From contig CAVWVQ010000003.1 in assembly GCA_963758525.1 (NCBI GenBank), forward strand, positions 2,816,001-2,880,000: 64,000 nt of DNA. Direction: 5' to 3'. This DNA comes from an uncultured Phycisphaerales bacterium (GTDB lineage: Bacteria > Planctomycetota > Phycisphaerae > Tepidisphaerales > Tepidisphaeraceae). Positions 27,746 through 64,000 of the stretch are shown one piece after another. The notes below the pieces were generated by a model. It was not told where the DNA came from, made no database searches, and worked only from the letters and a program-made list of their open reading frames with translations. Both the position numbers and the translations under genes were made by a program. The number at the start of each line of letters is the position of its first letter. Positions within the stretch are counted from its first letter, which is position 1.

Positions 27746-27775
27746 CGGATAATAGGCAAAGATAGGCTGATGACC

Positions 27776-27968
27776 GGCTCTGTAGAAAACCCATAGTAAC
27801 GCGAGAGCGATGTTGTGCGTCAATACTCTCAAGAACAGGTCACGGCAGCGGCCCCAATGGCTGCGGGCACGTAACGCTGAGCCCAGATTCCGCTTCAACA
27901 TTGAAAAGACGGTCTCGACCTGCGCCCGGTTCCGATACGCATTGCGGTTGAACCGTGTTTTCAGAGCC
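27776..27968 (-). mobile_element. 193-bp internally deleted copy of the adjacent IS
   Basis: Repeats the first ~185 bp of 27978 onward, ends in CAGAGCC, and is bounded by CTGATGACC on both sides. Confidence 0.88.
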
Positions 27969-28907
27969 CTGATGACCGGCTCTGTAGAAAACCCATAGTA
28001 ACGCGAGAGCGATGTTGTGCGTCAATACTCTCAAGAACAGGTCACGGCAGCGGCCCCAATGGCTCCGGGCACGTAACGCTGAGCCCAGATTCCGCTTCAG
28101 CATTGAAAAGACCGTCTCGACCTGCGCCCGGTTCCGATACGCCTTGCGGTTGAACCGTGTTTTCATTTGTCTGCGATATTTGTCGTGCGGCAGGCCGCCG
28201 GGAGTTTGGATCGGGCGTCCAGTGTTGGGTGGGATTGTTGAGCGGATGCCGTGGTCCTCGCGCAGCAGGCGGTGATTGTGGGCCGAGTCGAAACCCGCAT
28301 CGCCGACCATGTGCCTGACCTTCTGAGACAGAGGCAATTCAAGCAGCACCCGATCCAGCTCCGCGACGTCCGGCGTGGGCCCGACACTGGCGACAGCCGC
28401 CAGAATCGCATGCGTGGCGCAGTCGATGATGACCATCAGCTTGCCGTAATGCTTGTAAGTATGCCGCTTTTGCGGCCGTTTTCCCTTGTCCTTTTGATTG
28501 TCGCGACGCCAGATGAAATAGCGGCTGGCGTGGTGTGCGTCGAACCCGCTGGAGTCGACGGCGGCATAGGGCACCCGCCTTTTTCTCTGGCGAATCTTTT
28601 TCACCGTGTGATCGATCAGCCGTCGCACAAGCCTCTGGCTCAGCAGTCGGCGGCTGGCCTTCTGCAACGTAGTGAAGTGTGGCACCACCTTCAGGCCAAC
28701 GGTCTGACAAAGCTCGGGGCAGTCCCGCAGCAACTGGCAGATCCCACGATAGTCCTTCTTCTCGAACTCCTTGAGGACCAGACAGGCAAAGAGCTGCGGC
28801 TGCGTGAACTTATGGGGGCTATAGAGGTGTGAGTAGTCGCTAAAAGCGTCCTTGCCGGCAGCCAGCGCGACCATCGCCACCATCCTTGGCGACTTGCTGG
28901 TTAACAT
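27840..28907 (-). CDS. DDE transposase (IS4/IS5 superfamily); frame reads through the TIR
   Basis: PHFTTL, AVDSSG, GDAGFDS, YRNRAQVETVFSMLK (YREK-like). Confidence 0.88.
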   Translation of the reverse strand: MLTSKSPRMVAMVALAAGKDAFSDYSHLYSPHKFTQPQLFACLVLKEFEKKDYRGICQLLRDCPELCQTVGLKVVPHFTTLQKASRRLLSQRLVRRLIDHTVKKIRQRKRRVPYAAVDSSGFDAHHASRYFIWRRDNQKDKGKRPQKRHTYKHYGKLMVIIDCATHAILAAVASVGPTPDVAELDRVLLELPLSQKVRHMVGDAGFDSAHNHRLLREDHGIRSTIPPNTGRPIQTPGGLPHDKYRRQMKTRFNRKAYRNRAQVETVFSMLKRNLGSALRARSHWGRCRDLFLRVLTHNIALALLWVFYRAGHQGSENTVQPQCVSEPGAGRDRLFNVEAESGLSVTCPQPLGPLP

Positions 28908-28953
28908 ATTTATCGCATTATAGGATGGGGAAATGGTGGTTTTCTACAGAGCC
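27978..28953 (-). mobile_element. 976-bp insertion sequence with an IS5-like DDE transposase
   Basis: 16-bp perfect TIR GGCTCTGTAGAAAACC; 9-bp direct repeat CTGATGACC at 27969..27977 and 28954..28962. Confidence 0.93.
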
Positions 28954-28973
28954 CTGATGACCCCCTTTCTTCA

Positions 28974-29134
28974 CCCGGCGGTCGGGTCTTTCATGTGCTC
29001 AATCGCGGCAATTGCCGCAGGAACATTTTTTCCAAGCCCGGCGACTATGCCGCGTCCATCAAGATTCTGGAGGAGGGCCGGCGTCAAACCGATATGCGCG
29101 TGCTGGCATATTGCCTGATGAGCAATCACTGGCA
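28974..29134 (+). pseudogene. N-terminal fragment of a third RAYT, ending at the HUH motif
   Basis: Hand translation PGGRVFHVLNRGNCRRNIFSKPGDYAASIKILEEGRRQTDMRVLAYCLMSNHW. Confidence 0.85.
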
Positions 29135-29195
29135 AGCGGAGAACTAATCGGGGCTACCGGGAGTTTGGATCGGGCGGCACTTGCTGCTTCGATAT

Positions 29196-30398
29196 TCAGG
29201 TTCTCGCGGCGGCAAGTTTGAATCGATGCGCCCATCGGATCGCGGGAAGCTCCACCAGCCGGTACATGACGTATGCGCCCCCAACACTGGCAACGACAGA
29301 CATCGCTATCCACGCCAGGATCAGCGGCGGCGACCCGCGGCAGGCGCGCACTCCCAGGCTGTTGAGCGTGGAGCCGACGCTCCCATGCACCAGGTAAAGG
29401 CTGTAGGAGATGGCGCCCAGAAATTGAATCCACGCGCCCGACAGCCAGCGGCCCATCGTTCCCAGCGAGGCTGCCGTGTAGAGCGCAATGGCCGTCATCA
29501 CCACTACCAGGTTCCACAGAGTCGCGTCGGGTTGGCTGAACAGATGCGGCATGGTGAACAGCGTTGCGCACAGGAGAGCGATATAGGCCCAAAGCCATCG
29601 CACGGAAATCGATCGCTCGATCACGCCCCATACCACGACGCCTGGAAAAAACGAGTACCATCGCGCCAGGAAAAGTCCCTCAGGACACCGCAGCCATCCC
29701 ACGGAGACAGCGAGTGAAACCAGCGCGAGCGGCACAAAGATGAAGCAGCGCGACCCCTGCGCGAAGCCCGCAACCGCCCGATCGCGAAACGGCAATCGTT
29801 GGGCGACGCCGGTGAGGATCGTCAGCACCAGATAGAACTGCACCTCCAGGCACAGCGTCCAGAAGACGCCGTTGATCTCGCGAAGGTGGAGCAAATCCTG
29901 CAGGTAAAACAGATGCGCCAGCACAACTTTCCATCCCGGAAAGGGGACTTCCCGGCCGGGCCGCATGCGGTTGAGCAGCAGATTCATCATGAGAACCAGA
30001 ACAATGGTCGCCCAGTATGGCGGATCGAGCCGTAGCGATCGTCTCAGGGCAAAGCGGCCGAGATAGCGCGGCGTGACGTGGATTCCCCGCTGGCTGTAGG
30101 CAATGACGAAACCGCTGAGGACAAAGAAGACCGGCACGCCAAGAAAGCCGCATTTCCACACACTCATCAGCGGCGTGGGAACAAACTGCGCCAGCGGCTT
30201 GCTGAAGTGACCCACCGGTCCCAGATGAAAGAGAACGACTCCCATCGCCGCGATTCCGCGCAAGCCGTCGACGAAGGTGAAGCGACCGGAGGGTCGGGGA
30301 ATGCTCGAGTCAACAGCGCGCGGCGGGCTTGACTGAAGTGTCGCGGTCTCGGCCCCGGGCGGAGAGCCGGCCAGATTGATGGTGGACGGCATATTCAT
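29196..30398 (-). CDS. Acyltransferase family 3 (OafA/YrhL-like)
   Basis: DGLRGIAA, GVPVFFVLSGF, FWTLCLEVQFY, LGAISYSLYLVH, VELP. Confidence 0.92.
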   Translation of the reverse strand: MNMPSTINLAGSPPGAETATLQSSPPRAVDSSIPRPSGRFTFVDGLRGIAAMGVVLFHLGPVGHFSKPLAQFVPTPLMSVWKCGFLGVPVFFVLSGFVIAYSQRGIHVTPRYLGRFALRRSLRLDPPYWATIVLVLMMNLLLNRMRPGREVPFPGWKVVLAHLFYLQDLLHLREINGVFWTLCLEVQFYLVLTILTGVAQRLPFRDRAVAGFAQGSRCFIFVPLALVSLAVSVGWLRCPEGLFLARWYSFFPGVVVWGVIERSISVRWLWAYIALLCATLFTMPHLFSQPDATLWNLVVVMTAIALYTAASLGTMGRWLSGAWIQFLGAISYSLYLVHGSVGSTLNSLGVRACRGSPPLILAWIAMSVVASVGGAYVMYRLVELPAIRWAHRFKLAAART

Positions 30399-30486
30399 GC
30401 GGCAAAGCCATCGTGAACGAGAGCCGCTTTCCTGCCTGTACCCATGGGCGGCGCGGAGAAACCGAAGCGTGCTCGCGCAAGTTCAT

Positions 30487-32117
30487 CTAGCCCTTCGGCA
30501 AAACATTCGCTCTGTCCTGTTCGCGGGCGATTTTAGCGAACTCCTCGAGAAAGTGATAATTCTGCGACCAGGTGGTGTATAGATACCCCACAACATTGGG
30601 GACAGAGCCGTGCTCTGGAGCCACTGCTTCCAATCCGACATCGGTCCGTCGTAATAGCCGGCGAGAATCTGCCTTTGCCCGCGGTCGGCAAAAAACTTCA
30701 GAGACTGATCGCGGTGCTCGAAGTTCCAGTTGACGATCACGACTGACTTGTCGAGCCCCTCCCACGAGCCGGTCAACGGCCCGTTGACAAGGTAGTAGGG
30801 GCCGGCCACTCCGTTGTGATACGGATCAAACATGTCGCTCCAGAGATAAGGCGTCTTCGGCCGCAGCAAGGCCGTGCATTGCCGGACGTTGTCCGCCAGT
30901 AACTCCCCCGGGGTGCGATGGCGGGATGTGCACGACTCGTCCCAGTTCATGACACGAAACTCGTCGTGCGACATCATGTAGCCGTCCGCTTCCCAGAGCG
31001 CCTTCATGCGCTTGGCCTGATCGGCAAGCAGCGTCATCATTTTCGGATCGGAAATGCAGCCGCAAACCTGCTCGTCATAAATGACCGCAGGGTGATACCA
31101 GGAAACCCGCAGACGCGTGCCGTCGGGCAGATGCGTGTGAATCAATGGTGGCTCATGCCAGACCTGATACTCGCCGGGCCACGGATCGTTTCCCATGCGC
31201 GGGTCAACGATCCGATCGTAGTCCCGGTTCTCAACGCATTGGCGTCCGTGATCGATACTCACCGTGCATGGCGTGCCGTCACGGCGCAGGACATTGAGCA
31301 GGCCGACCTCCTCGATCTTCCAGTTTCGCCAATAGAGCGTGCCGTCAGCGCGATCCCAGACGCCGAAGTAGAGCATCACGTCATGGTTGTCGAGCGTGTT
31401 AAAGATGATGTCCTGGCGCGTCCAGTCCTGTGTCGAATTCACCTTCAAGTTGGTAAACGTCAGCCCGCGCGACCCGGCCAGAGCCTGGATCTGCGGATGC
31501 GCGGTGTAGCGGTCAGTTTTCACATCCACCGAAACGTGATAGCAGCGAAAGCGCGGGAGTTCGAGTTTGAAGGCAAAGCGGTGATGAATCGCGTTGCCGT
31601 GCACGGTCGCAACATTGCCGGCGATCTTCACCGTGTCATCGACAAACGCCGGCGTGGTGAGCGCCACCGGCGGATCAGCGACACAAGAGGCAATCCCGTC
31701 GTGAACGACAAATAACGTGTCCGTCACTGGCAGCCCCTCGGCCAAATTCGGATCGTTGAACAGGATGTCGTTCGAATACCCGATCGGGAAAACTGCCGGC
31801 ACGATCTGGAGCTTCAATTCTTCAGCGATCCGCCTCACCTTCCGGCAATTGTCAAAATAATGCTCCGGCAGCGTTGCGAGCCTGGCGAACTTGCTGTCGC
31901 TGAGCAAGACGGTCGAATAGCCTGCCGCGGCGGCCCGCTTCCAAATGCTCTCCAGTTTCGGAATATTCTCGTCCGGAAGAAGATTCGTCGGGTAATAGAA
32001 CCAGAGCTTTGCCGGCTCGGCGGCCATGGATGATTGAACGAATGAGCCGAAGGCAATGAGAGGGAGAGAAAGCGTGAACGTGAACAGCAAAAAGTGAAAA
32101 CGGGGATATTTGCGCAT
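30487..32117 (-). CDS. Secreted glycoside-hydrolase-like protein with an inserted CBM-like domain (frameshift near 30605)
   Basis: Signal peptide, MMSHDE and WSDMFDP reminiscent of GH20-like barrels. True C-terminus (GYLYTTW) lies in ORF 30487..30765. Confidence 0.6.
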
Positions 32118-32126
32118 GGGTTTCCC

Positions 32127-33170
32127 TTAGCCTTGCATTCCCGATCTCAACTCGTCGGCGTTCTGACATATCCATTGCCCACGGGCCAGCGCCATTTTCA
32201 GCCACGGAATGCGGCTGACGATCTGCTCCGCGGTGGCGCCGGCCAGCAGCATGGTGCACTCTGCCAGAACGGATTCGATCATCAGCAGCGGCAGGATCTC
32301 GACTTCGGCGTTCGATAGCCGCAGCACCGAGTCGTACGCATTAACGAACGCGTGAAACCGCGGCAGGTCGACCTCGGCGGGCCAGTCTTGCGGGGGGACC
32401 GACGAATCGATGAATGTCGAGAACGTCGTGGCGGAATTCGCCAGATCGACTACGCACTGTTGAATCCGCGCCCCGTCAAAATCGATCACGCCGACCACGT
32501 GTTGATTGCGGAAAAGCGCGTTGCCTGGATGGAAGTCGGCATGCACGATCTGCTTCGGCCAGGCGCGAAGACCGGCGGCGTTGGCCGAGCGCCGCGCTTC
32601 GTTGCGCAGCAGGAACACTTCATGAAAGAGATCGCGGCAGGCTGGATCCTGATCGGCGCCCGCGCCCGCAACAGCCTCGGCGTGGCGCAGGAGCCTGGGA
32701 ATCTGCGGATGATCGTGGTAACTGCCTGTCGGCGGTGAAAAGCCCGGACGGCATTTGGCCAGCAGTTTATGGCTCAACGCCAGCGTCCGGCCGGCGCTGG
32801 CGGTCGCTTCAATCGAACTGTCATAGGGAGAGGACTGCAGATATTCGAAGAGCTCGTAGACCGCATCATCGGTCTGCAACAGCGTGTTGTTGTCATCGCG
32901 GGTGGCGATGAGGTGCGGCACGGGAAAATGGTGCTTTGCAAGAAAGAGCTGAATTTCATGCGCGAAGGCAACCTTGAACGGGTCGCATTTTCCGGGGGCT
33001 CGCCGCTTGAGCAGAAAGACGTTGCGATCCGTAGTGACAAGAAGCTTCGGCGAGTGTGCCGAGCCCGCTCGAAGGGGAACCGCCGTGGCGAGGTCACCCA
33101 GATCGTAGCGGCTGAGGATTTGACGAGCCTCCTTGCCGGAAAACTCAAACGGTTTGAGTTCGAGAGCCAA
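32127..33170 (-). CDS. APH/type II homoserine kinase-like phosphotransferase
   Basis: HADFHPGN and VIDFD motifs. Confidence 0.85.
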   Translation of the reverse strand: MALELKPFEFSGKEARQILSRYDLGDLATAVPLRAGSAHSPKLLVTTDRNVFLLKRRAPGKCDPFKVAFAHEIQLFLAKHHFPVPHLIATRDDNNTLLQTDDAVYELFEYLQSSPYDSSIEATASAGRTLALSHKLLAKCRPGFSPPTGSYHDHPQIPRLLRHAEAVAGAGADQDPACRDLFHEVFLLRNEARRSANAAGLRAWPKQIVHADFHPGNALFRNQHVVGVIDFDGARIQQCVVDLANSATTFSTFIDSSVPPQDWPAEVDLPRFHAFVNAYDSVLRLSNAEVEILPLLMIESVLAECTMLLAGATAEQIVSRIPWLKMALARGQWICQNADELRSGMQG

Positions 33171-33476
33171 ACGAATGTCTCCGATTAAGCGAACGTGACA
33201 ATATTATACAAACGATGTCCGATGCCAATGGATGGCCAGCACTGCGCGACGTGGGATTTCTGCCGCGCTCTGAGGTTCTTATCGGCCCTTCACTATTCTC
33301 ACCGGTTCACTTCGGAAGCGATATTGCCGGGAATGGGTACACCCTAGGATAAAACGTCATTTTGATAACCTGCACCGCTTATACCGCGCTACGCACGTAC
33401 CGATAGGACCGACAGCGGCCTACCTGTTGTCCCGTGAAAACCGGCCGCGAGAGATTTTCAAAAACGGCCGTTCTGT

Positions 33477-36400
33477 ATGCATTGGATGAACTTCATCAAC
33501 TGGTTTGCCGGGGGGGAAAACCCCTACCACACGCTCTACCACTGCATGCGTGGCGATACGCCGTGGGTGGTCACCACGGTCGCGCTCGATCTGGCTGTTG
33601 CGATGGGGTATCTGCTGATCGCCAAGCACTGGTGGGAAAACGAGCGACAACTCAACAACACGAATGCAGCCAAAATCGCGCTGGGGCGGTTGAAAAACAT
33701 CTTCATCTTCTGCGGAATCTGCGGCTATGTGTTCATCCCCATCAAGATGTTCTGGCCGGCATGGCGGCTTTACGACATGTTTATGGGGGTGCTGGTTCTG
33801 TTCACATGGCGGTATGCGCTGGGGGCGCACGACTTGAAGGTGATTTATAGCGCCGTGAAGGGGAACGACAGGCTGGAGCGCGATCTGCAGGATTCTCTGG
33901 CCAATCGCGACCTTCTCGAGAGACTCGTCGCCGAACATACCAGTGAACTGGCCGCCGCCAATGACGCGCTGCGGCGCAGATCGCGGAAAAAGAAGCGGCG
34001 TCGCAGGCGCTGACGATGGAGCGCAATCTGCTGCGCACGCTGATCGACGCGGTGCCGGATCTGATCTACGCCAAAGGGCTCGATGGAAAATACGTTTTAA
34101 GCAACGTGGCCCATTCGCGGTTTGTCGGCCAGCCGGTGCCGGACAACGTCATCGGACATTGCGCCGCTGATTTCTTTCCGACAAATGTTGCCGCCAAACT
34201 CGATCTCGACGACCAGAAGATCTTTCGCCTTGGCGTTCTCATGCTCAACGGCGAGGATCCGATCGCCGATTCCGACGGCCATACGATGTGGATGGCGCGC
34301 ACGAAGGTTCCGCTGCGCGATCCCGCGGGAAAAATCGTGGGCCTGGTTGGAATCAGCCGGAACATCACGCTTCGCAAGGAAGCTGAGGCCCGGCTCAATG
34401 CTCTGAACGAAACGCTCGAGGAGCGTGTCGCGGAGCGGAGCGCCGCCGCCGAGCAGCGTGCCGGGCTGCTGTCGCGATCGGAGGACGCGCTTCGGACGCA
34501 GACGCGCATTTTGCGCCTGGTGCTGACGAGCATGGGCGACGGAGTCGTCGTCGCAGAGAAGGGCGGGCGCGTGATTCTCAACAATCCGGCGGCAGCGCAG
34601 TGGTTCGGACCGGTTCTGGCGGAAACGCGCGCCGACGAACAGCTTCTGGGACTTTATCTGCCCGATGGGCAGACCCCGTATCCTGCCGGCGATCGGCCGC
34701 TCGCCCGCGCCTGCGCGGCGAAGCGGTCAACGAAGCCGAGTCGGTCTTCCGTCGCACGCCCGAGGCTGAAGGGATCTGGCTCAGCGCCACGGCCCGTCCG
34801 CTGCGCGACGACGATGGGACCGTGCAGGGCGCGGTGGTCGTCTACCGGGATATCACTGGGCGAAAACGTGATGAAGCAAACCTGGCCGAGTCAGAGGAGC
34901 GATTCCGTCAGTTGGCCGAGTGCATCGATGAAGTGTTCTGGCTGCACGATCCGGTCGCCGGGCGCATGATCTACGTAAGCCCGACCTATCAGAACGTCTG
35001 GGGGCGCCCCGCGGCCAGTTTGTACGAGGATGCCGGATCACTGCTGGCCGCGATTCATCCCGATGACCGCGATCGCGTGGCGGCCGCGATCGAACGCCAG
35101 AGCCGCGGCGCCAACACGAGCGAGGAATACCGGATTCTGCGCCCGACGGCACGATGCGCTGGATTTGGGATCGCGGTTTTCCGATCAAGGACCGCAACAA
35201 GCACACATACCGCGTTGCCGGCGTCGCGGAGGACATCACCGACCGCAAGCAAGTGGGGGCTGAACTGCAGAAAGCCAAGGAAGACGCCGAGGCCGCGAAC
35301 CGCGCCAAGAGCGAGTTCCTGGCGAACATGAGCCACGAGATCCGCACCCCGATGACCGCGATCATTGGTTTCGCGGACATGATGCTTCAGCCGCATCAGA
35401 CCGCGTGCGATCGCAACGAGTGCGTTCAGGTCGTTCGCCGCAACGCCCGGCATCTGCTGGGGTTGATCAACGACATTCTCGATCTCTCCAAGATCGAAGC
35501 GGGGAAGATGACCGTCGAGCGGATTCCGTGCGACGTGCCGCAGCTCATGGCCGACGTGCTGTCGCTGATGCGTCCCCGCGCGAGGAAAAGGGGCTGCGGC
35601 TCGACGTGGACTTCGACGGGGCGATTCCCCGCAAGATCATGACAGATCCTCTGCGGCTGCGGCAGATCATCGTCAACCTTCTGGGCAATGCCATCAAGTT
35701 CACGAATGAGGGATTGATCGCGGTGCGAGTGCGATGCGAGGGGACCGGAGCATCCAACGTATTGCGGATCGACGTCACCGACAGCGGCATCGGGATGACC
35801 CGGGAGCAGATCGGGCGTCTGTTTCAACCATTCACGCAGGCTGACGAATCCACCACGCGCCGTTTCGGGGGCACCGGCCTGGGGCTGACCATCAGCCGGA
35901 AGCTGGCAAATCTGCTGGGCGGCGATATCGGCATCGAATCCGAACCGGGCATCGGGAGCACCTTTACCGTGTGGATCGGTTGCGGTTCGTGCGTTGGCGT
36001 CGAGCTGATCCAGGGGCTGACGGAAGAAAAGCTTCCCAGCGGCGGAGAAGAGGGGCAGTCGGATCACTTGCTGATTCGCGGCCGAATTCTGCTTGCCGAG
36101 GACGGCCGCGACAATCAGCGTCTGATCTCGACGCACCTTCGGACCGCCGGCGCCGAAGTGGAGATCGCCGACAACGGCCGGGCGGCGGTGGAGATGGCCC
36201 GCTCGCAGCCGTTCGACCTGATCCTGATGGACATGCAGATGCCGGAATTGGACGGATACGACGCCACCGCAGAATTGCGATCCCAGGGCTTCGCGCTCCC
36301 GATTATCGCGCTGACGGCCAATGCCATGTCCGAGGATCGCGCCAAATGCATCGCCAGCGGATGCACCGACTATCTCACGAAACCCATCGAAAGAGGGATA

Positions 36401-36850
36401 CTCTTGAAAACCGTATTGCACCATTTAGGACAATCCGATGTGACGCGTCCCGCCAGCGCCGCCCCTGTCGAATCGCCCAGGCTGCAGTCACGGCCGGATG
36501 TCAGCGAGGGGCCGATCACCAGCACGCTGAACGACTATCCCGGAATGAAAAACATCATTCTTGAGTTTGTCGCGGGTCTTCCGGAGGAAGTGAAGAAAAT
36601 GCAGGAGCTGATGGACGGTCACGACCTCTCGCTGCTCAAGCGTGCGGTGCATCAGCTTCGCGGCGCCGGCGGCGGATATGGGTTTGACGCGATCTCCGAA
36701 AAGGCGACGGCCGCCGAAGAGTCGATCAAGGCGTCCGATAATCTCGAGACGATCCAGGCGAAGATTAATTCCCTGATTGACGTGATTCATCGCATCGAGG
36801 GATTCGACAAGAACAAGGAGAACGCCGCGCTCAAAGGAGATCGCTCATGA
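33477..36850 (+). CDS. Hybrid sensor histidine kinase: ethylene-receptor-like TM domain, three PAS, HisKA, HATPase, REC, Hpt (four apparent frameshifts)
   Basis: Joined ORFs 33477, 34016, 34600, 35154, 35405. [47 protein letters not shown]. Confidence 0.88.
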
Positions 36851-37743
36851 AGGATACCGTATTGATCGTTGACGATTCGCCGCACGTGCACAAGCTCGTC
36901 GGCGCCTATCTGAAGAACGACGACATCTCCCTGCAGTCCGCCTTTGACGGGGAAGCAGCGATCTCCAGCGCTTCCCAGCGGCGGCCGAGCCTCATCCTTC
37001 TGGACGTGGACATGCCGCAGGTCGACGGGTTTGAAGTGTGCCGGCGTCTTCGCTCCAATCCCGCGACCAACGACACGCCGGTGATGTTCGTCACCGCCGA
37101 CGGCTCGCTCTCCGACAAGGTGAAGGGGCTGAACCTGGGGGCGGTCGACTACATCACCAAGCCATTCAAACCTGAAGAATTGCAGGCCCGTGTGCAGGCG
37201 GCGCTGCGGGCGCGGCGGCAGTTGGCGGCGACTTCATTGGTGGACGGCATCTCCGGACTGTGGAACGAGTCCTACCTGCAGCAGCATCTCCCCGCGCAGA
37301 TCTCGCTGGCGCGGCGCAGCGGGCAATCGCTCTCGTGCGTTGCCGCAAACATCGATGCGCTGCACCGGATCAATCACGACAAAGGTCAGGCCGCCGGCGA
37401 CGACATCGTGCGCGCGGTCGGGCACATTCTGCTGAGCCATTGCCGCGCGGAAGACATCGCGTGCCATTGCCATGAGAAGTTCGTGCTCCTTTTGCCAGGC
37501 ACGTCACGCGTTGGCGCAGCGAAGCTTGCCGATCGGGCGCGTACGGAAATCGAACGGCAGCTCCGTCATCGAGCCGGCGAAGGAATCGAGGTGACCTGCA
37601 GCTTCGGCGTTGCCGACACCCACGGGGAGACTGACCTGTCGGTGGTCGATGGCGCCGACGCCGCTCTCTACCGCGCCAAGCAGAGCGGCGGAAACAAGGT
37701 TTCCATCAGCCGCCCGCCGCAGGCGGACTGCACGGGCGCGTAA
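36847..37743 (+). CDS. REC-GGDEF protein, degenerate active site
   Basis: LLDVDMP receiver; RAED I-site then IACHCHEKF in place of GGDEF; ADAALYRAK. ATGA-coupled to the kinase. Confidence 0.85.
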   Translation: MKDTVLIVDDSPHVHKLVGAYLKNDDISLQSAFDGEAAISSASQRRPSLILLDVDMPQVDGFEVCRRLRSNPATNDTPVMFVTADGSLSDKVKGLNLGAVDYITKPFKPEELQARVQAALRARRQLAATSLVDGISGLWNESYLQQHLPAQISLARRSGQSLSCVAANIDALHRINHDKGQAAGDDIVRAVGHILLSHCRAEDIACHCHEKFVLLLPGTSRVGAAKLADRARTEIERQLRHRAGEGIEVTCSFGVADTHGETDLSVVDGADAALYRAKQSGGNKVSISRPPQADCTGA

Positions 37744-37746
37744 CAT

Positions 37747-38973: not shown

Positions 38974-38995
38974 CACTGAACACGAGGTCCGCATC

Positions 38996-52807: not shown

Positions 52808-52841
52808 TGGCCGCAATTTAGGCCGCTGAAGGAGTCTTATC

Positions 52842-53075: not shown

Positions 53076-53104
53076 TCCCCGGTTCCGCGAAAGGAAGCGA
53101 CCAG

Positions 53105-54358: not shown

Positions 54359-54370
54359 CCGCGGGGACGC

Positions 54371-54718: not shown

Positions 54719-55407
54719 GTCAGCAAACCCGCCTCGTTGAGGTGCGCCAGCAGGTCCTCAAGCAGAACGATGTCGTCGCCCGCGCACTCCGCGATCGCTT
54801 TCGCAGCGCCGGCGTGTTCGTCGTCAGTCTTGTCTCGAGTCCCGGCTCGGGAAAAACGGCGTTTCTCGAAAAAACACTGACCATGCTTCGCGAGGAATTT
54901 CGCGTCGCGGCCCTTGTGGGTGATCTTGCCACCGACAACGACGCGCGCCGATTGGCCCGCAGCGAAACGCCGGTAAAGCAGATCACCACCGGCACACTGT
55001 GTCATCTCGAAGCCGAGATGGTGCGCGCCGCCCTGAATGGCTGGAACGAAAGCGAGCTGGATTTTCTGTTTATCGAAAACGTCGGCAATCTCGTCTGTCC
55101 CGCGACCTTCGATCTGGGGGAGGACATGCGGCTGGTGCTCTTCTCGACCACCGAGGGCGAGGATAAGCCGCTGAAATACCCGACGATCTTCAACAGCGCC
55201 GACGTGGCGATCATCACCAAGATCGACCTTGCCGACGCTGTCGAATTCGATCGCGGCGCGGCCCATCGAAACATCCAGTCGGTCCGGCCAGGGATGGAGA
55301 TCATGGAAGTGTCGTCCAAGTCCGGCCAGGGCATGGAGGAATTCCTCCGCTTCCTGCGCACGCGCCGCCGCGAGGCACGCGGTGAGGCGGTTGCCGCCGC
55401 GCGATGA
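54715..55407 (+). CDS. hypB: Nickel-insertion GTPase HypB
   Basis: SSPGSGKT, CHL, ENVGNLVCP, DKPLKYP, TKID. Confidence 0.95.
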   Translation: MSQQTRLVEVRQQVLKQNDVVARALRDRFRSAGVFVVSLVSSPGSGKTAFLEKTLTMLREEFRVAALVGDLATDNDARRLARSETPVKQITTGTLCHLEAEMVRAALNGWNESELDFLFIENVGNLVCPATFDLGEDMRLVLFSTTEGEDKPLKYPTIFNSADVAIITKIDLADAVEFDRGAAHRNIQSVRPGMEIMEVSSKSGQGMEEFLRFLRTRRREARGEAVAAAR

Positions 55408-55520
55408 TTTCAGGGAGATCAACCGATGGATCTCGGCTGATTGTCGCGCGCGGCCTTGGTATATTCCCGCCATGTGATCCGCCATTGTGCCGGGAACTGC
55501 GGATCGCGTGAGGTAACGCT

Positions 55521-56273
55521 ATGCCGATCCACGACTGGACAAAAGTAAACTCCGGGACGTTTCACCATTTTCATCAAAGCTGGATTCAGGAGATCGCACG
55601 GCTATTGAACTCGGGTCAGCTTCCTCAAGGTTTCTACGCGATGGCCGAGCAGGTTGCCGGCGGTTGGGGACCGGATGTGGTGACCTTGGAGACACCTGAT
55701 CATGAGGAAGAACGCGATGCCATGGACGACGGCCCTTCGTCGAGCATCGGGGCAACAGCAGTTGCAGAACGACCGCCGGTGGTCGCGTTCCATGCCAGCG
55801 CCGAGGTTGACATCTACGCCCGAAGGGCAAGCAAGCTTGCGATTCGCCATTCATCGAACGACCGTGTGGTCGCGGTGATTGAAATTGTTTTACCGGGAAA
55901 CAAGTCCTCGGGCCATGCGCTAAGTAAATTCACGGAGAAGGCAGCAGATCTGCTCGATGCCGGCGTCCATCTGCTGATTGTCGACCTGTTTCCGCCGGGG
56001 AGATTTGATCCGGGCGGATTGCATGCGGCGATCTGGCAGGATTCATCGGTGGAACGTCTCCAGTTTGATCCAGACAAACCCCTGACGCTGGCCAGCTATG
56101 TTGGGGGTGAAATGCTGGAGGCATACGTCGAGCCGACCGCGATTGGGCGGACGCTGATCGACATGCCGTTATTTCTGGATCCCAGGAGGTATGTTCCGGT
56201 CCCGCTGGAAATGACGTACCAGTCGGCCTGGGAACTGGTGCCCGCCGTTTGGAGAAAGCGGATCGAGGCGTGA
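55521..56273 (+). CDS. DUF4058-like protein (PD-(D/E)xK-like fold)
   Basis: MPIHDW..FHHFHQSWI, PDV, EIVLPGNK, HLLIVDLFPP. Confidence 0.78.
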   Translation: MPIHDWTKVNSGTFHHFHQSWIQEIARLLNSGQLPQGFYAMAEQVAGGWGPDVVTLETPDHEEERDAMDDGPSSSIGATAVAERPPVVAFHASAEVDIYARRASKLAIRHSSNDRVVAVIEIVLPGNKSSGHALSKFTEKAADLLDAGVHLLIVDLFPPGRFDPGGLHAAIWQDSSVERLQFDPDKPLTLASYVGGEMLEAYVEPTAIGRTLIDMPLFLDPRRYVPVPLEMTYQSAWELVPAVWRKRIEA

Positions 56274-56392
56274 GCAGCAAAGTTGAATTGGTAGCTTCTG
56301 CAACGACGCGTGCAAATCAATGATTGACTGATCTACAAAAACAACCACAGAGAGGGAGGAGGCCACAGAGCCCACAGAGAATGCAAAAGCAA

Positions 56393-56524
56393 GAAAATGC
56401 GAAGGGGGTCGGGCCGGGTGACCCCCTTCGCGTTCCGCGTTCCCAGCCAGGAAGCTGGGGTGACGGCCTGACCCCCTTCGCATTTTCAACCGACGGGAAA
56501 GGCTGATGACTGATGACCCCCTTT
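56393..56524. repeat. REP-like palindromic cluster of the AAGGGGGTC/GACCCCCTT family
   Basis: GAAAATGCGAAGGGGGTC pairs with GACCCCCTTCGCATTTTC. TCAACCGACGGGAAAGGCTGATGAC is the reverse complement of ~60008..60031. Confidence 0.85.
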
Positions 56525-56539
56525 CCTTTCCAGGAAATA

Positions 56540-56672
56540 GTAACTGTTTACCGTGGCAAAATGACCGAGAATCACAGCATGGAAACGGGCCGCGAGACGT
56601 AATGGCGCGCATTGGGCATCTCAAAATCCCAGCAAAGTTGCTATCTGTGCGCTGCTGACGGTAAACAGTTAC
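56540..56672. mobile_element. 133-bp MITE, copy 2 (inverted relative to copy 1)
   Basis: Same 15-bp TIR; 8-bp target duplication AGGAAATA at 56532..56539 and 56673..56680. Confidence 0.92.
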
Positions 56673-56695
56673 AGGAAATACGGGCTCTCTTCACT

Positions 56696-56751
56696 CCTGA
56701 ACCCTGAACCCTGAACCCTGAACCCTGAACCCTGAACCCTGAACCCTGAAC
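56696..56751 (+). repeat. Tandem heptamer (CCTGAAC)x8
   Basis: Eight perfect units counted, then degenerate units. Confidence 0.95.
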
Positions 56752-56841
56752 CCTGACACCCTCAACCCTCGCTTTGCCGAACTTAAGTCAAATGATTCTG
56801 CCCTGCTTGCCGCCGACAGCGTCATCCGTGGTTCAATCTCT

Positions 56842-59716
56842 TTAAAACGATTGTCCGCCCGCAACTTGCTTTACCTGATCATCGGACAGCGCCGCGGACC
56901 AGAACCGCACTTCATCCAGCGACCCATGAAACCAGGGACGGCTGGAATCCGCCGGGCGGGCGAGATAGCAGTGCGACTTGGCGGCCGGCGGCCGGAAATC
57001 GGCCAGCGTCATGGGGAACGGACCATCAGCCTCAACAACTCCGTCGATCACCAGCCGGGCGTTCACTCCGTCGAGAATCACCGCTACATACGTCCACGCC
57101 CCGATCGTCGTGAAATGTCGGCTGGCCAACGTGTGAATGCTGCCTCCCTTGCGGGCGATCAGCGCGAAACGGCCGTGTCCGTCATCGGGCGTCAAATGAA
57201 TTGCGTCCGAAGTCTCGGAGCCGATGAACCAAACCGGCTGATCCGGCGGGCCGCTCTCCCGGCGAACCCACGCCGTGATGCTTGCGATGCGCATATCCGC
57301 CACGCTTCGTTCCAGAAGTACCGCCTGCGTCTTTCCATCGAACGTGAGAAAGCCCCTATGCCGTCCCCCGCCGGCTTCCCAATGGGGATGGCCGATCAGG
57401 ATGCCATCGTTGAGGCCCGGGCCATCGAGCGCCAGGCTTTCGTTGGGCGCATCAAAGTCATAACTCACCCATCGATGCGGCGGGGCGTGACGCTGGTCAA
57501 TCCATTCCTGCGGGCAAGCCTGATACGGGACAAAGCCGGTCTGGAAGCCGTTGCCGGCGTGATGCGGCCCGCCGTAGTCGGCAGTGAGCACGGCGTCGCC
57601 GTCGATGCCCGGCGATGCCGCGCCATCCTGCCCGTTTCCCCACACCTGAACGCACCCTTCGACCGTGGCATTTTCCCTGATGAGCGCGTGGTCCTTGACC
57701 TCCGCGGTTTGCAGCGCGCGGGCATCGTCGGCGAGATGCGCATTCTCGGTGATAAACGCGTAGTCCCGGACGCGGGCATGGCCGTCGATCACCGCGTCGT
57801 CCTTGACGAGGGCGTGATCGCTGAGAATCGCGTTGTCCTTCACCTGCGCATTGCCGCGCACTTCGGCGAAGTCCTCGATGTGCGCCGAACCTTCGACGCG
57901 CGCGTTGTCCAGCACCATCGCGTTGGGCCCGACGAAGGCGCTGTCGGCCACATGAGCGGTGTTCGCGACGAAACCGCCGCCGTTGGAGTGCGGCCGGCCG
58001 GGAACATCTGGCGCCGAGGGATTTGCTCCAGCGCCGGAACGGCTCCGCTGATTTTCACGTCATAAGCAAGCCGGCGCCGGGAAGGGTGGGTGCGCCAGGG
58101 GAATTGCATGTCGTCCTGCTCCCACCAGACAAACTGGTCGGGCGTGGCGATCACGACCAGAAAAACGCGATCGGTATCGGCCGGCAGCGAGAGCGCCTGC
58201 GTTCCCTTGTCAAAGAGAGGCGAGGCGGCGGCTTCAGTGCCGTCGCGCCGCCGGGCGACAATGCACGCCCGCCAGTCGGCGGCAACTGACTTGTCCGGCA
58301 AGCCGTGAAATTCCACCGCCACCCGGCTGCCCCAATGACCCTCGGCGGGAACCAGTTCGTGAACCGTGTACCCGCCCGGATTGGGCGCTTTCTCGGGGGA
58401 AACCCGAAAGCGCCCGGAAGCATAGGGCACGGGGAGCAGATCGGGCCAGATCAACCTGCGGTTCTCGGGATTTGCGCGGAAGTCTTCGCACGCCCGCCGC
58501 ATCGCCGACCCGTTGCTGAATGCCCACGTCACCGACCGGCGGGCATAGTTTCCCAAAGCGGCTTTGATGTCCAGCCGCGGGTCGAGCCGGCGGATGCAGT
58601 CAAAGATATTTTCCTTCTCGTGAATGCTCTGCCATAGCCGGCCCGAAAAGCCATCGGAAAGTCCCGGCAGCAAATCGGGATTTTCATCCAGATACGTCCA
58701 GATGGGCCAGCAGAGGTAATAGTCGCGCCCGTGCGCGGGATACCATTGGCTCATGGTGGAGAAATACGGATCGATGCCGCTGACGGGTACGGTGTTGGCG
58801 ACATTGGGGTTGTCCGACTGCTGGGCGTAGAAGTACATGAGGTAGCGCTCCCGGCCGTAGTTTGCGTGGCTCTCCCACCACATTCCCCTCATGCCGCCGT
58901 GTTGCGCCTCCTGGAAGGCGTGCATCAATTCATGCGGGATGACCCAGCTTGGCGGATCGACGCGCAGGCCTGTGGGATCGATGTTGACCACGCCGCCGCC
59001 GGTCATGTATCCGCCCTGGTGCGTCGTAATGTTCACTTTGTAGAGGCGGTTGGGAGATTGGCCGGGAAGAGAGTAGGGGGGCTTGAGCTTGAGGGCCTTG
59101 ATGTAATATTGCCAGCATTCCTCGAAGTTGCGCAGCGTGCCGTGGGCCTGCCCGGCGGTGAAGTTCTCGCTGAGCCCTTTGCCCCAGTAGATCCGAAAAT
59201 GCTTCGACTGCGCGGATTTCTGCCCCCGCCAGTCGGGCAACTCGAAGGTCAGCCCGAATTGCTGCGGCTCGTCATCCCCGACCTTGGCCGACACCAATTT
59301 TGCCGGCGGCTCGACGGCGATCGATTGCACGCGTCCCCGCCACCAGACCTGCAGGCTCATGTCGATCCGGTAGGTGTGGCGTCCGCCGTCTCCGATGACT
59401 TTGGCCGCCGGGATCGTAATGATCTGTGGCGCGGTCGTGCCCGGCGCGTGGGTGCAGACATACGCGACGTTGATGTCGCGATGCGCCGCCGAGCCCGCGG
59501 CGATCACCAAATCCAGATAATTGTTGTATCCCAAGTCCAGATCGGGACCGCCGTTGCCGCCGTCGGCGATCGGATCGCTCGCCCCCTGCAAGGGCGTGGT
59601 ATCGTCAACGGTAATCGGTAGTTGTGACTGCGCCGCGCGGCAGCGCCCGATTGCCGGGGCGACTTAATCAGGATCATCAGCGCACACAGCAGAAAGATTC
59701 GCGGTGTTATGGGCAT
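56842..59716 (-). CDS. Secreted multidomain protein: HExxH domain (DUF6055-like), hexapeptide beta-helix, LamG-like domain (two apparent frameshifts)
   Basis: Signal peptide from ATG 59716; PHELMHAFQ..WWESHAN; [IV]xDxAx repeats; ITAWVR..WTYVAV..FHGSLDEVRFWSAALS. Confidence 0.75.
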
Positions 59717-59774
59717 TGTTCCAGAAGATAAGGGACTGTAACAAAATAACTTAAACAATTGGTCTGCAATTTGC

Positions 59775-59996
59775 ATGGCTATGGACGGTACGTACACGGA
59801 GGTGCGTAACGTGAGCATCACGGTTCAATTCAAGTATGATACACTGGCCGGTGCGATGAACGAACAGTTTCGACGGCGTTGGGCTGGCTGCGAGGCACTT
59901 GCAATGGGCCGGGGCGGCGTCAGTATCGTCGCGGCGGAGACAGGGATGTCGCGTAATACCGTTCTGCGGGGGATCGCGGAGATTCAGGAACAGGTG
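59775..59996 (+). pseudogene. N-terminal fragment of an ISAzo13-like transposase
   Basis: NEQFRRRWAGCEALAMGRGGVSIVAAETGMSRNTVLRGIAEI (HTH region), cut at the REP preceding the RAYT. Confidence 0.75.
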
Positions 59997-60051
59997 ATGA
60001 AAAGGGGTCATCAGCCTTTCCCGTCGGTTGAGTGGATGGTACATTCCCTGA

Positions 60052-60744
60052 ATGGCCCGTAAACCCCGATTCTCCCCCGGCGGCTTGGCGTATCACGTGA
60101 TGAACCGCACTCCGGGGAAGGTCAAGCTGTTCGAGGATGATGGAGACTATCAGGCGTTTGAGAAGGTGCTGATCGAGGCGATCGATCTGCATCGGGGAAT
60201 ACGGCTCTGCGCCTATTGCCTGATGCCCAACCACTTTCATCTGGTGCTCTATCCCAAGACCGACGGCCAATTGTCCCGCTTCATGCAGTGGCTCACCATG
60301 ACCCACGCGGCCCGCTGGCATGCCCATCGCCACAGTGTCGGGCGCGGGCATCTGTATCAGGGCCGCTTCCGGAGCTTCCCGATTCAGCGGGACGGGCATT
60401 TCCTGAGTGTCTGCCGGTATGTGGAGCGGAATGCGCTGCGGGCCAGTCTCGTGGCCAAGGCGCAGGACTGGCGATGGGGTTCGCTCTGGGCGAGGGATGA
60501 CCGCAGCAGCGCGATCGCCCGGTTTCTGGCGCCCTGGCCGGTGGAGATGCCAGGGAGATGGGTGACTCTGGTCAATCGGGCGGAAAGCGAGGTAGAGCTG
60601 GCCGCGTTGCGCCGCGCGGTTGCTCGCGGCCGTCCCTACGGCGATGATCGCTGGTCGCAGCGGACGGCCAAGGCGCTGGGCAGTGACAGCTCGTTGCGCC
60701 CGATCGGCCGGCCGAAGAAATCGAAGCCGCCGAGGAAGGGCTGA
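60052..60744 (+). CDS. Intact REP-associated tyrosine transposase (RAYT, Y1/HUH)
   Basis: YHVMNR, YCLMPNHFHLVL (HUH), GHLYQGRF, RYVERN. Flanked by inverted AAAAGGGGTCATCAGCCTTTCC (~60000) and GGCTTATGGCCCCCTTT (~60763). Confidence 0.9.
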   Translation: MARKPRFSPGGLAYHVMNRTPGKVKLFEDDGDYQAFEKVLIEAIDLHRGIRLCAYCLMPNHFHLVLYPKTDGQLSRFMQWLTMTHAARWHAHRHSVGRGHLYQGRFRSFPIQRDGHFLSVCRYVERNALRASLVAKAQDWRWGSLWARDDRSSAIARFLAPWPVEMPGRWVTLVNRAESEVELAALRRAVARGRPYGDDRWSQRTAKALGSDSSLRPIGRPKKSKPPRKG

Positions 60745-62402
60745 TGGCTGATGCGGAAAGATTGGCTTATGGCCCCCTTTTATCACCTGAATTGGAACAG
60801 CTGCTTCCTCCGCTAACCGTGTCCGACGCGAGCCACTCGTCGAATACCGTAACTGCCGTGAGCGGCACGCCGGTGGACCTCTACGTGCCTGAGGTGCTGA
60901 ACTCCGATGGCAGTTCAGCAGGCTATGCGACGATCAATCTGCACGAAGATGCCAGCGCTGCAAGCGGAGCGTCGTTGCCGTGGACGATCGGCGGGGCAAG
61001 CGCAAGTAAGAACGGCGGGACCGTTACGCAAGCCGCCGATGACTCGGTAACGCTGACGCCGACGGGCGGGAATTACGACTTCGATTTGCAGGTGGTGGCC
61101 GGAGAGTACTCAGAAAGCCAGGCGGTGTATGATGTCGTTGTGCATGTTTATACCGTGGCCGTCGAGTTCAACGACACGCCGGCAACGAATGACGATATTG
61201 TTATGCTCGGCACACCGGCGGAGGGTCCCGATATCCCGCCGAACCAGCCCGAGCTTGGCGCGGCGGTGCAGATGGTTGGCGACGGGCCATCGGGCCTTAC
61301 GGTGACGCTGGACAACCCAGACGGTCGTTTGGGTTTTGGCGAGGGAGCCCCTTCGTCGGAACCACTGTCACAGCCCTCATCGCCCGTCCCGACACAACCC
61401 AGTACCCCAAGCTTTACCCTCCCCACGGACGGCTCGTGGCAGTACGTTTCAGTTTTTGGCCTCGGCGTCAGCGCGGCTGTTGGCGACGCCTCGGTTCGGG
61501 TTTCGGGCAGCGTGCTCCGGCAAGTTGGCGGGTTCGTTCTCGGCAAAAAAGGGGCAACGGTATTTTGGTTCAGCGGGTCTAGCATTACCGTGCAGCCGGC
61601 TGGGAATTACGCGTCGGTTAATAACGGTCCAAAGGAGAGTTACACCGTAGACACCGCCGTGAATAACGCGGCGTCAGCGGTCACCATTCAAGGCAGCGCG
61701 ACACTCACCCCAGCCGGCATCGATCCTAATGCGCCCCAGCTCACTGCCTTACGAATCGGCTTTGTGCAAAACGCTGTCAACTCGATGAGCGTGGTGACAT
61801 ACGCAAACCCGGTTCAGGGCGCAGCCGTTAATGGGGGAGGAATTGCGAATGTCGCTCCCACGGAGGTCTACACGATTCAGGTCCCGACGCTTCTCAACGA
61901 CTCGGCTGTCGGCAGCACGCCGCTTTACGCTCAGCCCGGCAACGATTTCAACGACCCATTGACAAGCAATTCCGTGCAATACGCCAACGGGGTCGCACAA
62001 CCCAGCACAATTGACACGCCGTCACTAATTGGCTGGAAGCAATCGTTGACCCTCAATGCAGATGATGCAAATGGCAATGTCGTCGGCACGGTAACCTATT
62101 CCCTTGCAAGCTTAGCAATCGACGACGTTTTTCGAGATTTTCTGGTCGTGGGCGTGGCAGATTCCAATCAGCACGTTACCACGGTAATTGCCCCGTTGAA
62201 GGAGACGGGTTGGCATTTGAACGTGAATTCGGCGGCCGCCAATCCCAACACGCAAGTCGCAATAGTAAACGGCGATGCAAACGGCGGCTCGCCCCCTACG
62301 GATGCTCCGATATTGAGCGGCGCGCTGCTCAACGATGAAATTGCCAATCCGGCGAATTTGAACCTCGCGGGTGTCGGCAACCCCATACAGGACAATTTCT
62401 AG
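60744..62402 (+). CDS. Beta-rich surface-type protein, probably the 5'-truncated tail of a larger gene
   Basis: 552-aa open frame rich in G/S/T/V/N. The start lies inside the REP and there is no signal peptide. Confidence 0.55.
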   Translation: MADAERLAYGPLLSPELEQLLPPLTVSDASHSSNTVTAVSGTPVDLYVPEVLNSDGSSAGYATINLHEDASAASGASLPWTIGGASASKNGGTVTQAADDSVTLTPTGGNYDFDLQVVAGEYSESQAVYDVVVHVYTVAVEFNDTPATNDDIVMLGTPAEGPDIPPNQPELGAAVQMVGDGPSGLTVTLDNPDGRLGFGEGAPSSEPLSQPSSPVPTQPSTPSFTLPTDGSWQYVSVFGLGVSAAVGDASVRVSGSVLRQVGGFVLGKKGATVFWFSGSSITVQPAGNYASVNNGPKESYTVDTAVNNAASAVTIQGSATLTPAGIDPNAPQLTALRIGFVQNAVNSMSVVTYANPVQGAAVNGGGIANVAPTEVYTIQVPTLLNDSAVGSTPLYAQPGNDFNDPLTSNSVQYANGVAQPSTIDTPSLIGWKQSLTLNADDANGNVVGTVTYSLASLAIDDVFRDFLVVGVADSNQHVTTVIAPLKETGWHLNVNSAAANPNTQVAIVNGDANGGSPPTDAPILSGALLNDEIANPANLNLAGVGNPIQDNF

Positions 62403-62410
62403 GAGAGAGT

Positions 62411-63471
62411 ATGTGCGGATTCTCTGTGCGTGCATTTCTCATCTTCACCACGCTTGTTTCGGGAGAGTCGCATTTAGCGGCGTCTGCTCAGTCTGAAACA
62501 GCGTCTTTAGGACAGGATTCACCTGGGTGCGCAGTGCGCATGGCGTGTGACATCGCACGTTTCAACCCTTTGGAAATCGACGGCCGCAATGGTGACGGAT
62601 GGGCGGTTTTACAGATCACGCCGGACCGTTGCGGGTACACAGAGCGCGTTGATCTCGCGATGTCCGAGGACGGGCAGGCATTTCCCGTTCCGCCGCCTGC
62701 CTCGCTCGAACGATCAATTGTCGGCGGAACGGTGCATCTGATCTCGGTTCTCTCGGGAAACCCAGGTTGCGTGGAGAGGTTCGAGGAGGTGACTATCGGC
62801 GGTGCTAACGCGCCCGACCCCGGCGTGTCCGAAAAATTTTACTCGCCATTCGAGCACGGAGGTACATTGGTTTGCCGTGTCAATAACGGCTTCCCGGGTC
62901 GATACCGGTTCTGTCCGGCTATTCTGATTCCATCGGAGTGGGCAAGCCAAGTTGAGCCCGCCATTCACTTTGTGCGGCAAAACTCGCAGTTATTCGACCC
63001 GGCCAACCTGCAGCGAGCGCGCCCTCGGCTCGAATCGCTTCTAAAAGATCCCAACCCTCTCCTCTCGGCTGCAGCAGCACGCCTGTTGGCGGCCGTGGGC
63101 GGATCGGACGACGCTATCGAGCGCCAATTGGCGATGACGAGAGACCCGGTGCTTCAAAGTGTCTTCGTCCGGGTTTTGGTTTTCGGCGGTCCAACTACCG
63201 CCTCTACCGATCGGGTAAGGGCGATCTGCAAGTTGGTCGGCTTGCGCACGAGCCAAAGGTCGTTCGGCCGCTTGCTGTCGGGACATTGGCGGCCGCAGCG
63301 CGACGTTTCCCTTGGGACGGACCATGGGATTCGGTAGATCCACTGATACATAGTCTGGCAGAGAAACTCTCTGACGCTTCGAACTCCTCAATCTACGACC
63401 GGCAGCTAATGAAGATGATCCAGGCGACGGCGCACTTTACCGATGCCCGGACCCCCACAACGCGCCAGTGA
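62411..63471 (+). CDS. Hypothetical exported protein with a HEAT-like helical C-terminus (frameshift near 63240-63290)
   Basis: AGGAG RBS 5' of ATG 62411, signal-peptide-like start, LESLLKDPNPLLSAAAARLLA. Confidence 0.55.
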
Positions 63472-63545
63472 AAGTTGTCGCGACGCAGTGAAAATGGCAC
63501 CTGTTTTAAACGGAAAACGGGACGTCGCGACGTCACTGATTTCCG

Positions 63546-63915
63546 GTGATCGGGCTCACGCCCTTTGGCGTAACCCTTGGCGGCGGCACGTTCGACATGG
63601 CGGACAAAAGCGAAAGCTTCAACCTCCTAGCCGGCAGCGGAACGGTCACCGATTCATCGGCGACTGCTTCGTCCCTGACGATCGGAACCGCCAACGGCTC
63701 GGGCACGTTCTCCGGCGCGATCCGCAACGGCAACGCAACCGTCAGTCTGACGCAAATCGGAACCGGAACGCTCACATTGAGCGGCACATCCGACAACGCT
63801 TCGCTCGCGCTGGACGCCGAGGCGGGGACGACCATTCTGAACAAGACCAGTTCCGCCAGCGTCCACGCCGTCTCGGGGATCACCAACATCGCCACCGGAG
63901 CCCTCGTCCAGCTCT
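63546..63915 (+). pseudogene. Internal fragment of an autotransporter-associated beta-strand repeat protein
   Basis: LAGSGTV, GTFSGAI, LTQIGTGTLTLSG. Both ends are cut by repeat-like DNA. Confidence 0.7.
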
Positions 63916-63961
63916 CCCGCCGCTTGTCGGGGAAATGCGAAGGGGGTCACCCGGTCATCAG

Positions 63962-64000
63962 GGCTCTGTAGAAAACCCCCAGTAACGCGAGAGCGGGGAA
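63962..64000 (-). mobile_element. End of another copy or derivative of the 27978..28953 IS
   Basis: GGCTCTGTAGAAAACC preceded by GGTCATCAG, the reverse complement of the 9-bp target. Confidence 0.85.

Follow-up and report, generated by a model that had tools for sequence, protein, structure and literature searches.

A clade of IS5-family insertion sequences found mostly at a fixed register within the terminal inverted repeats of TIRtrons

Where does an insertion sequence (IS) land when it is found repeatedly beside the same few bases, and to what do those bases belong? The question is raised by a 64,000-nucleotide stretch of DNA (the window) from an uncultured Phycisphaerales bacterium (assembly GCA_963758525.1, contig CAVWVQ010000003.1, positions 2,816,001 to 2,880,000), which holds a 976-bp IS and two partial copies of it, each next to a (T/A)GACC-type flank. 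A preliminary description took this flank for the fixed core of a repetitive extragenic palindromic (REP) sequence accompanying a REP-associated tyrosine transposase (RAYT). In our analysis it is part of a terminal inverted repeat (TIR) of a TIRtron, a unit with a Y1 transposase (TIRYT, Y1 subclass 2.1). The IS belongs to a clade whose members sit mostly at a fixed register within such TIRs, and we think it probable, from the sequences compared, that the transposase itself reads AAAGG|KGWCRNNNN|NNNTT, where the bars enclose the duplicated bases.

The locus runs, base for base in the order first reported, from CTGATGACC (27767..27775, forward strand; the inner portion of a truncated TIRtron's right TIR) through a 193-bp piece (27776..27968, reverse), a second CTGATGACC (27969..27977, forward) separating this piece from the full IS, and the IS itself (27978..28953, reverse, right end at 27978 and left end at 28953) to a third CTGATGACC at 28954–28962, then CCCTTT. 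The third copy and the outer part of the TIR together occupy 28954..28975 (forward; CCCTTTCTTCACC), and joining them to the left flank of the first copy rebuilds a right TIR of the type that we call family A. The full IS has perfect inverted ends of 16 bp, GGCTCTGTAGAAAACC. A third IS end had been placed at 63962, and it does abut GGTCATCAG (63953–63961) next to GAAGGGGGTCAC (63939–63950), an arm of a second TIR family (the pair spanning 63939..63961, forward); what follows is only a 34-bp right-end remnant (63962..63995, forward), not an element, with an orientation to the target opposite to that of the element at 27978. In the whole genome (G000, 6.47 Mb) we find one full IS and four partial copies, namely the 193-bp piece and remnants of the right end that measure 207, 196 and 34 bp; all four retain the right end, and there are no left-only copies. 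Inspecting the flanks of IS ends genome-wide, as had been proposed, bears out site selection: there are six strong ends, every one adjoining a (T/A)GACC-type flank, and five further matches to the end with two mismatches are not IS ends (no blastn match).

The element is an IS5-family DDE insertion sequence by every sequence trait compared, as first supposed. Its transposase P0001 (309 residues, 27981..28907, reverse) reaches 143.6 bits against the curated IS5 model NF033579 transpos_IS5_2 (cut-off 140) and E 1.6e-16 against PF01609, and carries D118, D203 and E264, the last within Y257-R260-E264-K271; Y-2-R-3-E-6-K is the IS5-family signature. D118, D203, E264, R260 and K271 are invariant in 67 sequences, and Y257 is kept in at least 90%. 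Length (976 bp, about 1 kb), 16-bp inverted ends and a 9-bp target duplication are likewise IS5 traits. The reading frame meets no stop codon within the IS and continues past its right end into the 193-bp piece, where it terminates at 27840 (a 355-residue open reading frame). The predicted structure is one compact DDE fold without an extra domain (predicted local distance difference test score, pLDDT, 86), best matched by the DDE transposases/integrases ISCth4, TnsB, piggyBac and Tn5; a sequence search of solved structures gave no match.

The closest named relatives of the transposase come from Tepidisphaeraceae and other Phycisphaerae, while the nearest named proteins are ISH28 and ISHla2 (27–28% identity over 94%), which we take to be members of the ISH1 group. 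That group has -GC ends and an 8-bp duplication, and the IS903 group has GG ends; the tips here are GGC in the window IS and TGC in many relatives. An 8-bp duplication, the ISH1-group trait, is seen in only 3 of 72 insertions, and the 9-bp duplication of the IS903 group in 59; ISH28 and ISHla2 are moreover archaeal, and the window clade duplicates 9–10 bp. No IS903-named record stands among the best 30 of 129 plasmid matches.

What, then, is the repeat? At 60052..60744 (forward) lies an intact gene for a 230-residue Y1 transposase of TIRYT type with the motifs NHFH, FPIQ and YVERN, bracketed by a left TIR (59991..60016, forward) and a right TIR (60764..60789, reverse; degenerate core GGCCATAAG). 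The inverted pair around this gene and its homologues holds GGGGTCAT, a 7/8 match to the core GGGGWSAS; such a pair occurs at 21 of 28 full-length TIRYT matches and the core in 16, these rows being partly redundant. TIRtrons are described with just this core near both gene ends and with TIRs dispersed singly and as dimers (Di Nocera 2013, PMC3733652), and TIRtron-type units are placed in subclass 2.1, without REPs, by Quentin 2018 (PMC6006769). The window unit agrees with them in its inverted TIRs at both gene ends, its 230-residue Y1 protein and its NHFH/FxxQ motifs. Subclass 2.1 motifs and length are present (NH[YF]H, FQ, about 238 residues), YVERN deviates from Y-x3-NP, and the protein scores 58 bits against NF047646, below the RAYT cut-off of 80. 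There is no obvious long C-terminal helix-turn-helix extension, and Pfam reports Y1_Tnp only, no subclass-profile search having been made. On these sequence features the host repeat is a TIRtron TIR.

The TIR hit by the IS stack (rebuilt site 27767/28962) is the right TIR of a 5'-truncated TIRYT gene (27143..27604, forward; residues 78–229 of the intact copy, 95% identical), and immediately outside it follows a 5' fragment of another TIRYT gene (28965..29129, forward), nested TIRtron debris. Both empty targets that had been named are present: the one left of the intact gene lies at 60006–60014, one base from where it was first placed, and the other at 56510–56518, in a family-A TIR (56501..56527, forward) that has 7 bp duplicated in tandem inside it (CTGATGA CTGATGACC) and, 22 bp off, a small MITE (a transposable element of miniature size with inverted repeats). 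Insertion is thus site-selective and in repeats that flank a RAYT-like gene, as claimed; that these repeats are REPs did not hold up. Single TIRs fold no better than shuffled sequence (z −0.9 to +0.2), and the dimer of the second TIR family at 56396..56434 (no strand assigned; GCGAAGGGGGTC..) folds (z −3.1) because its halves stand head to head. The REP tag GT[AG]G/C[TC]AC is absent at the targets, CGTC not having been scanned for. We therefore rejected a canonical REP as target, the single repeats having neither hairpin nor GT(A/G)G tag, and with it any hairpin-based targeting.

A preference of one element could be an accident of one genome, and the clade was surveyed accordingly. A flank rule was set on 69 genome loci (71 of 102 ends match) and then tested on 80 held-out metagenome loci. 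There the TIR core was recognised at 104 of 140 distinct ends, with a background of 2.1%; 13 of 17 further ends in relatives match the motif. Among 138 distinct full elements, 72 have a target duplication (one counted twice, hence 71 distinct), of 9 bp in 59, 10 bp in nine, 8 bp in three and 12 bp in one. The element ends are constant across relatives and the duplicated sequence is variable, so the 9-mer is target and not element end, which the preliminary description had rightly assumed. The 72 duplication-verified insertions yield the pseudo-palindromic consensus AAAGG|KGWCRNNNN|NNNTT of about 19 bp, in which only the first 4–5 bases of the duplication and the symmetric AA/TT flanks are conserved. 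GG|KGWC is exact in 46/72 and within one mismatch in 54/72, or 31/49 and 35/49 when the multi-copy genomes G252 and G392 are left out. Sites were oriented on the core, which inflates the information in the core columns; the orienting made no use of AAA at −5 to −3 or of TT at +13/+14, and these columns carry 0.75–1.45 bits.

The insertion register is constant to a single base across 35–100% protein identity, in a clade that reaches from Planctomycetota to Bdellovibrionota and others. A FastTree phylogeny of 108 proteins rooted on L128/L129 finds targeting in all main branches save a basal Pirellulales group (two frameshifted members are misplaced). G252 has 14 copies of an element with 38% identity, 11 of them in a single TIR family and at one 19-mer, and that family's TIRYT is present; one element in G392 uses four different TIR 9-mers in four of its six copies; the three copies in G521 all sit in one further TIR family. 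For 9 of 173 ends a TIRYT gene is found no farther than 200 bp away, the background being 0.22% (eight queries, all from G000), and elements stand inside the TIR of a TIRYT gene at L027/L219, L151, L162, L032 and L034. Of seven TIR 9-mers catalogued from TIRYT genes, five are found unchanged among the duplications and make up 19 of the 72 events, the catalogue being drawn partly from the same genomes.

CTGATGACC is common, with 126 copies in G000 of which two loci are occupied, so that the 9-mer cannot be the whole target. The preliminary description had the transposase read a fixed, non-palindromic REP 9-mer equally well in either orientation. Such a rule, which would suit the five of six strong ends in G000 at CTGATGACC or a one-base variant and the same 9-mer at the 88%-identical L187, is very improbable: besides the many empty copies and the missing REP hairpin and tag, the clade uses 52 distinct 9-mers in its 72 insertions, and its orientations divide 35:18:1, so that both do occur, with a bias of about 2:1.

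How might one protein of 309 residues find such sites? A transposase dimer would contact the symmetric AA/TT flanks 4–5 bp outside the cuts, as in IS903 with its 5-bp flanks and 9-bp duplication. It would also read GG|KGWC, the asymmetric core, and the orientation bias would follow from this. Targeting by a guide RNA of the IS110/IS1111 type was rejected: the enzyme is DDE and not DEDD, the element has less than 100 bp of non-coding DNA, and no target-like sequence is found inside elements (longest match 6.88 against 6.84 for shuffled sequence). Direct readout is preferred because weak-core sites keep their flanks (AA in 10 and TT in 7 of 11), because unrelated TIR families are used at one register, and because neither hairpin, guide-like match nor extra domain is at hand.

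The transposase could instead be drawn to TIRs by bound TIRYT or a host protein, much as XerC has been proposed to guide ISAjo2-group elements at dif (PMC10132070). The use of many divergent TIR families at one register would fit, as would the confinement of the three G521 copies to a single TIR type and that of the four occupied loci in G000 to one type although other types there score equally. We consider such guidance unlikely: the A/T flanks are kept at weak-core sites, the cuts are made within conserved core bases that would presumably lie hidden beneath a bound protein, 309 residues leave no room for an extra domain, and G252 has one strong TIRYT match against about 55 repeat copies.

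Much the same doubt attaches to a loose preference for A-tract/G-rich intergenic DNA from which purifying selection leaves mainly the copies in harmless TIRs. In its favour, roughly one end in four misses the motif, true targets score over a wide range with the matrix (10th percentile 2.9 bits), and genomes display survivors only. Selection alone, however, fixes no register, and here a single-base register is held over the whole identity range; the 11 of 14 G252 copies in one 19-mer among 5.5 Mb are near-identical and hence recent; and an outgroup persists at other intergenic sites. That outgroup is also a better control than the basal Pirellulales group: in G053 its element is in TIRs in 0 of 4 cases, despite seven strict TIR sites and TIRYT genes there, and three copies lie at one other repeat instead.

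Several observations weigh against direct reading of TIRs by the transposase as a full account. Off-motif ends number 36 of 140 in the held-out set, a 77%-identical relative (L003) and a Paludisphaera copy (L355) are off target, and the two ends of an element, like kin, are non-independent, so that the counts are tallies and not P values. With the same eight queries, no TIRYT is detected up to 200 bp away from as many as 164 of 173 ends, and most targets are thus called TIRs from sequence and not from an adjacent gene. The basal Pirellulales group (0/6 in TIRs) was discarded as a control for specificity, its genomes being almost free of TIR sites (two and zero strict sites, no TIRYT found with the query used). 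On G000 the clade matrix gives 58 sites of at least 16 bits, only 29 of them in the four named TIR families; the rebuilt window site scores 14.2, a level of 14 or more being reached by 150 genome sites; and that all four occupied loci are GGTCAT-type while about 29 type-B TIR sites are empty is not predicted by the clade-wide matrix. Survival bias, with insertions in genes purged, inflates the apparent specificity. What the matrix leaves unexplained could be due to finer preferences of the individual element, to hopping over short distances or to guidance by a protein.

The stack can be fitted to direct reading of the target. Insertion would duplicate the core, the outer copy retaining the A-tract flank, and that copy could then be hit again. 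The likely order of events in the window is that one element came first, that another inserted at the outer copy thus regenerated, and that internal deletion then cut the first down to 193 bp. In the 193-bp piece, 188 bp starting at the IS right end, with four mismatches, are joined to the last 5–7 bp of the left end; it is single-copy in the genome, and from its sequence it is a relic of one in-place deletion. As a MITE it was rejected, since two intact ends and several copies would be required, and the mobile mini-IS first proposed is accordingly not supported. Quite improbable, a shade more so than the two accounts above, is a local duplication or recombination of part of the IS with the 9-mer, in place of a second transposition. 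Relic and 9-mer do form a 202-bp near-tandem copy of the IS start, and partial duplications are known in relatives (G004, G392); the relic, however, closes in CAGAGCC. These bases are the tip of the opposite IS end and would be missing after a simple tandem copying of the first 188 bp. The relic also mismatches the IS at 4 of 188 sites, and at L102 the two stacked elements are different ones that have a duplication apiece.

Stacks form elsewhere too, the longest seen having two elements, so that the arrays first envisaged shrink to pairs. L187 reads element-CTGATGACC-element on a short-read contig with 76 bp of the second element; L102/L354 hold two different clade members in one TIR with duplications of 9 and 10 bp; and in L278 elements occupy two adjacent TIR copies 37 bp apart. 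True non-autonomous minis are seen in G332 (L373/L380; 122 bp, both ends, 9-bp duplications, in TIRs), and G519/G520 have minis of 130 bp. Duplications of 10 bp are common in some elements (G252, G001 and G521 loci), tending to one orientation, with the extra base on the TIR inner side. Of the full elements 66/138 have no duplication, most of these coming from short contigs, and eight have inverted flanks; since duplications were recovered for 23 of 26 elements in the near-complete G252/G392 against 20 of 58 in metagenome contigs, the majority of inverted or mismatched flanks are likely assembly chimeras or inter-copy recombination, and a new mechanism was rejected. The Roseomonas-plasmid relatives L357 and L358 (about 40% identity) have inverted flanks resembling a third repeat type.

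The outgroup IS5 elements (31–34% identical; L308, L312 and L316 in G053, L311 in G090) use TTTG|AAACCA(G/C)(T/C)T|CTAG, and in G053 this site adjoins a CCCCTCACCC..GGGAGAGG repeat; sister lineages may target different repeats. At L162:992-1805 a TIRYT gene has an IS end in each TIR, a layout like that of a composite transposon.

Around the stack, 25560–29130 is a nest of TIRtron debris with type-A and type-B TIRYT pieces, a MITE and the IS stack, including a frameshifted type-B TIRYT (25695–26355) with a duplicated TIR. The MITE, unrelated to the IS and 133 bp long (27613..27745, no strand assigned; ends GTAACTGTTTACCGT; 8-bp duplication), lies between the truncated TIRYT and its TIR, and a second, inverted copy with the 8-bp duplication AGGAAATA is at 56540..56672 (no strand assigned). 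All three full copies (the third at G000 C3:3-134) are about 30 bp or less from a family-A TIR, a hint that this MITE, as a second element besides the IS, may home on the neighbourhood of TIRtron ends. At 56696–56769 an array of ten heptamers (CCTGAAC) closes in the TIR-like CCTGACACC. Tandem duplications of 7–9 bp begin at the insertion register in several TIRs (window 56503–56518; G000 C3:5031738 and C3:2561853) and could be either excision footprints or TIRYT slippage; they occur at 5 of 346 sites in G000, at none in G252 and G392, and at one in G001. IS copies truncated by TIRs number 4 of 16 against a 13% background, which is not significant. A Pfam survey of Y1 proteins in 121 genomes yielded mainly members of other Y1 classes and was set aside.

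For comparison with known systems, ISNm1106 is presumably an IS5-family member, the IS903 transposase has about 310 residues, and IS231A targets the ends of Tn4430. Tobes & Pareja 2006 (PMC1525189) report REP targeting in the IS3, IS110, IS4, IS256 and IS5 families, with IS1397, ISKpn1, ISPsy8, IS621, ISPa11, ISPpu9/10, ISRm22, ISRm19 and ISNm1106 among the elements given, so that repeat targeting by a DDE element is already known. Like these, some of which are DDE elements, the window clade takes a fixed position in a dispersed repeat of a Y1 transposase system, and its hybrid flanks recall ISRm22. It differs in that its repeat is a non-hairpin TIRtron TIR and not a GTAG/CGTC REP, and in that a clade uses many TIR families, not one element the repeat of one species; ISNm1106 itself has only a "near REP" (type 2) link in PMC1525189. 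IS903, with a 9-bp duplication at WTTYA-N9-TRAAW (Table 1, PMC2577343), resembles the clade in its length of about 1 kb, its 9-bp duplication, its symmetric flank readout (which in the clade would follow from the consensus) and, going by the title of Hu & Derbyshire, its orientation preference; its flank sequence is another, and here an asymmetric core tied to the ends of another element is added. In the ISAjo2 group of the IS1202 family (PMC10132070) a single DDE transposase likewise homes on the sites of another recombination system, dif/pdif, though with 441–457 residues, a 5-bp duplication, insertion beside the site in one orientation and a proposed XerC contact. No IS targeting TIRs is named in the parts of PMC3733652 and PMC6006769 drawn on here, and Figure 9 and the supplements of PMC3733652 may list the same TIRs. 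Literature searches, with subscription papers and ISfinder notes outside their reach, turned up no report of IS5 elements of one clade sitting at the ends of TIRtrons; insertion of IS elements into REPs is documented.

To the few site-selective DDE elements known, the finding adds an IS5 clade and a new class of target, one mobile element residing in the ends of another across 35–100% identity. For the IS, which the preliminary description thought might be a parasite, TIRs would likely be a safe, multi-copy intergenic landing pad whose supply is maintained by TIRYT activity; for the TIRtrons, the duplications map the ends to the base and help to define little-studied elements. A single protein of 309 residues with a preference of about 19 bp, whose close sisters have another preference or none, offers a testable series for how DDE targets change, and the window-type IS5 transposase is a possible insertion tool. 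A coupled IS5–TIRtron system, in which bound TIRYT guides the DDE enzyme, the Y1 gene travels in composite transposons formed by elements in both of its TIRs (the L162 layout) and sister lineages were redirected to other repeat families, is a long shot; if true, it would amount to a naturally retargetable, single-protein, RNA-free site-selective integrase.

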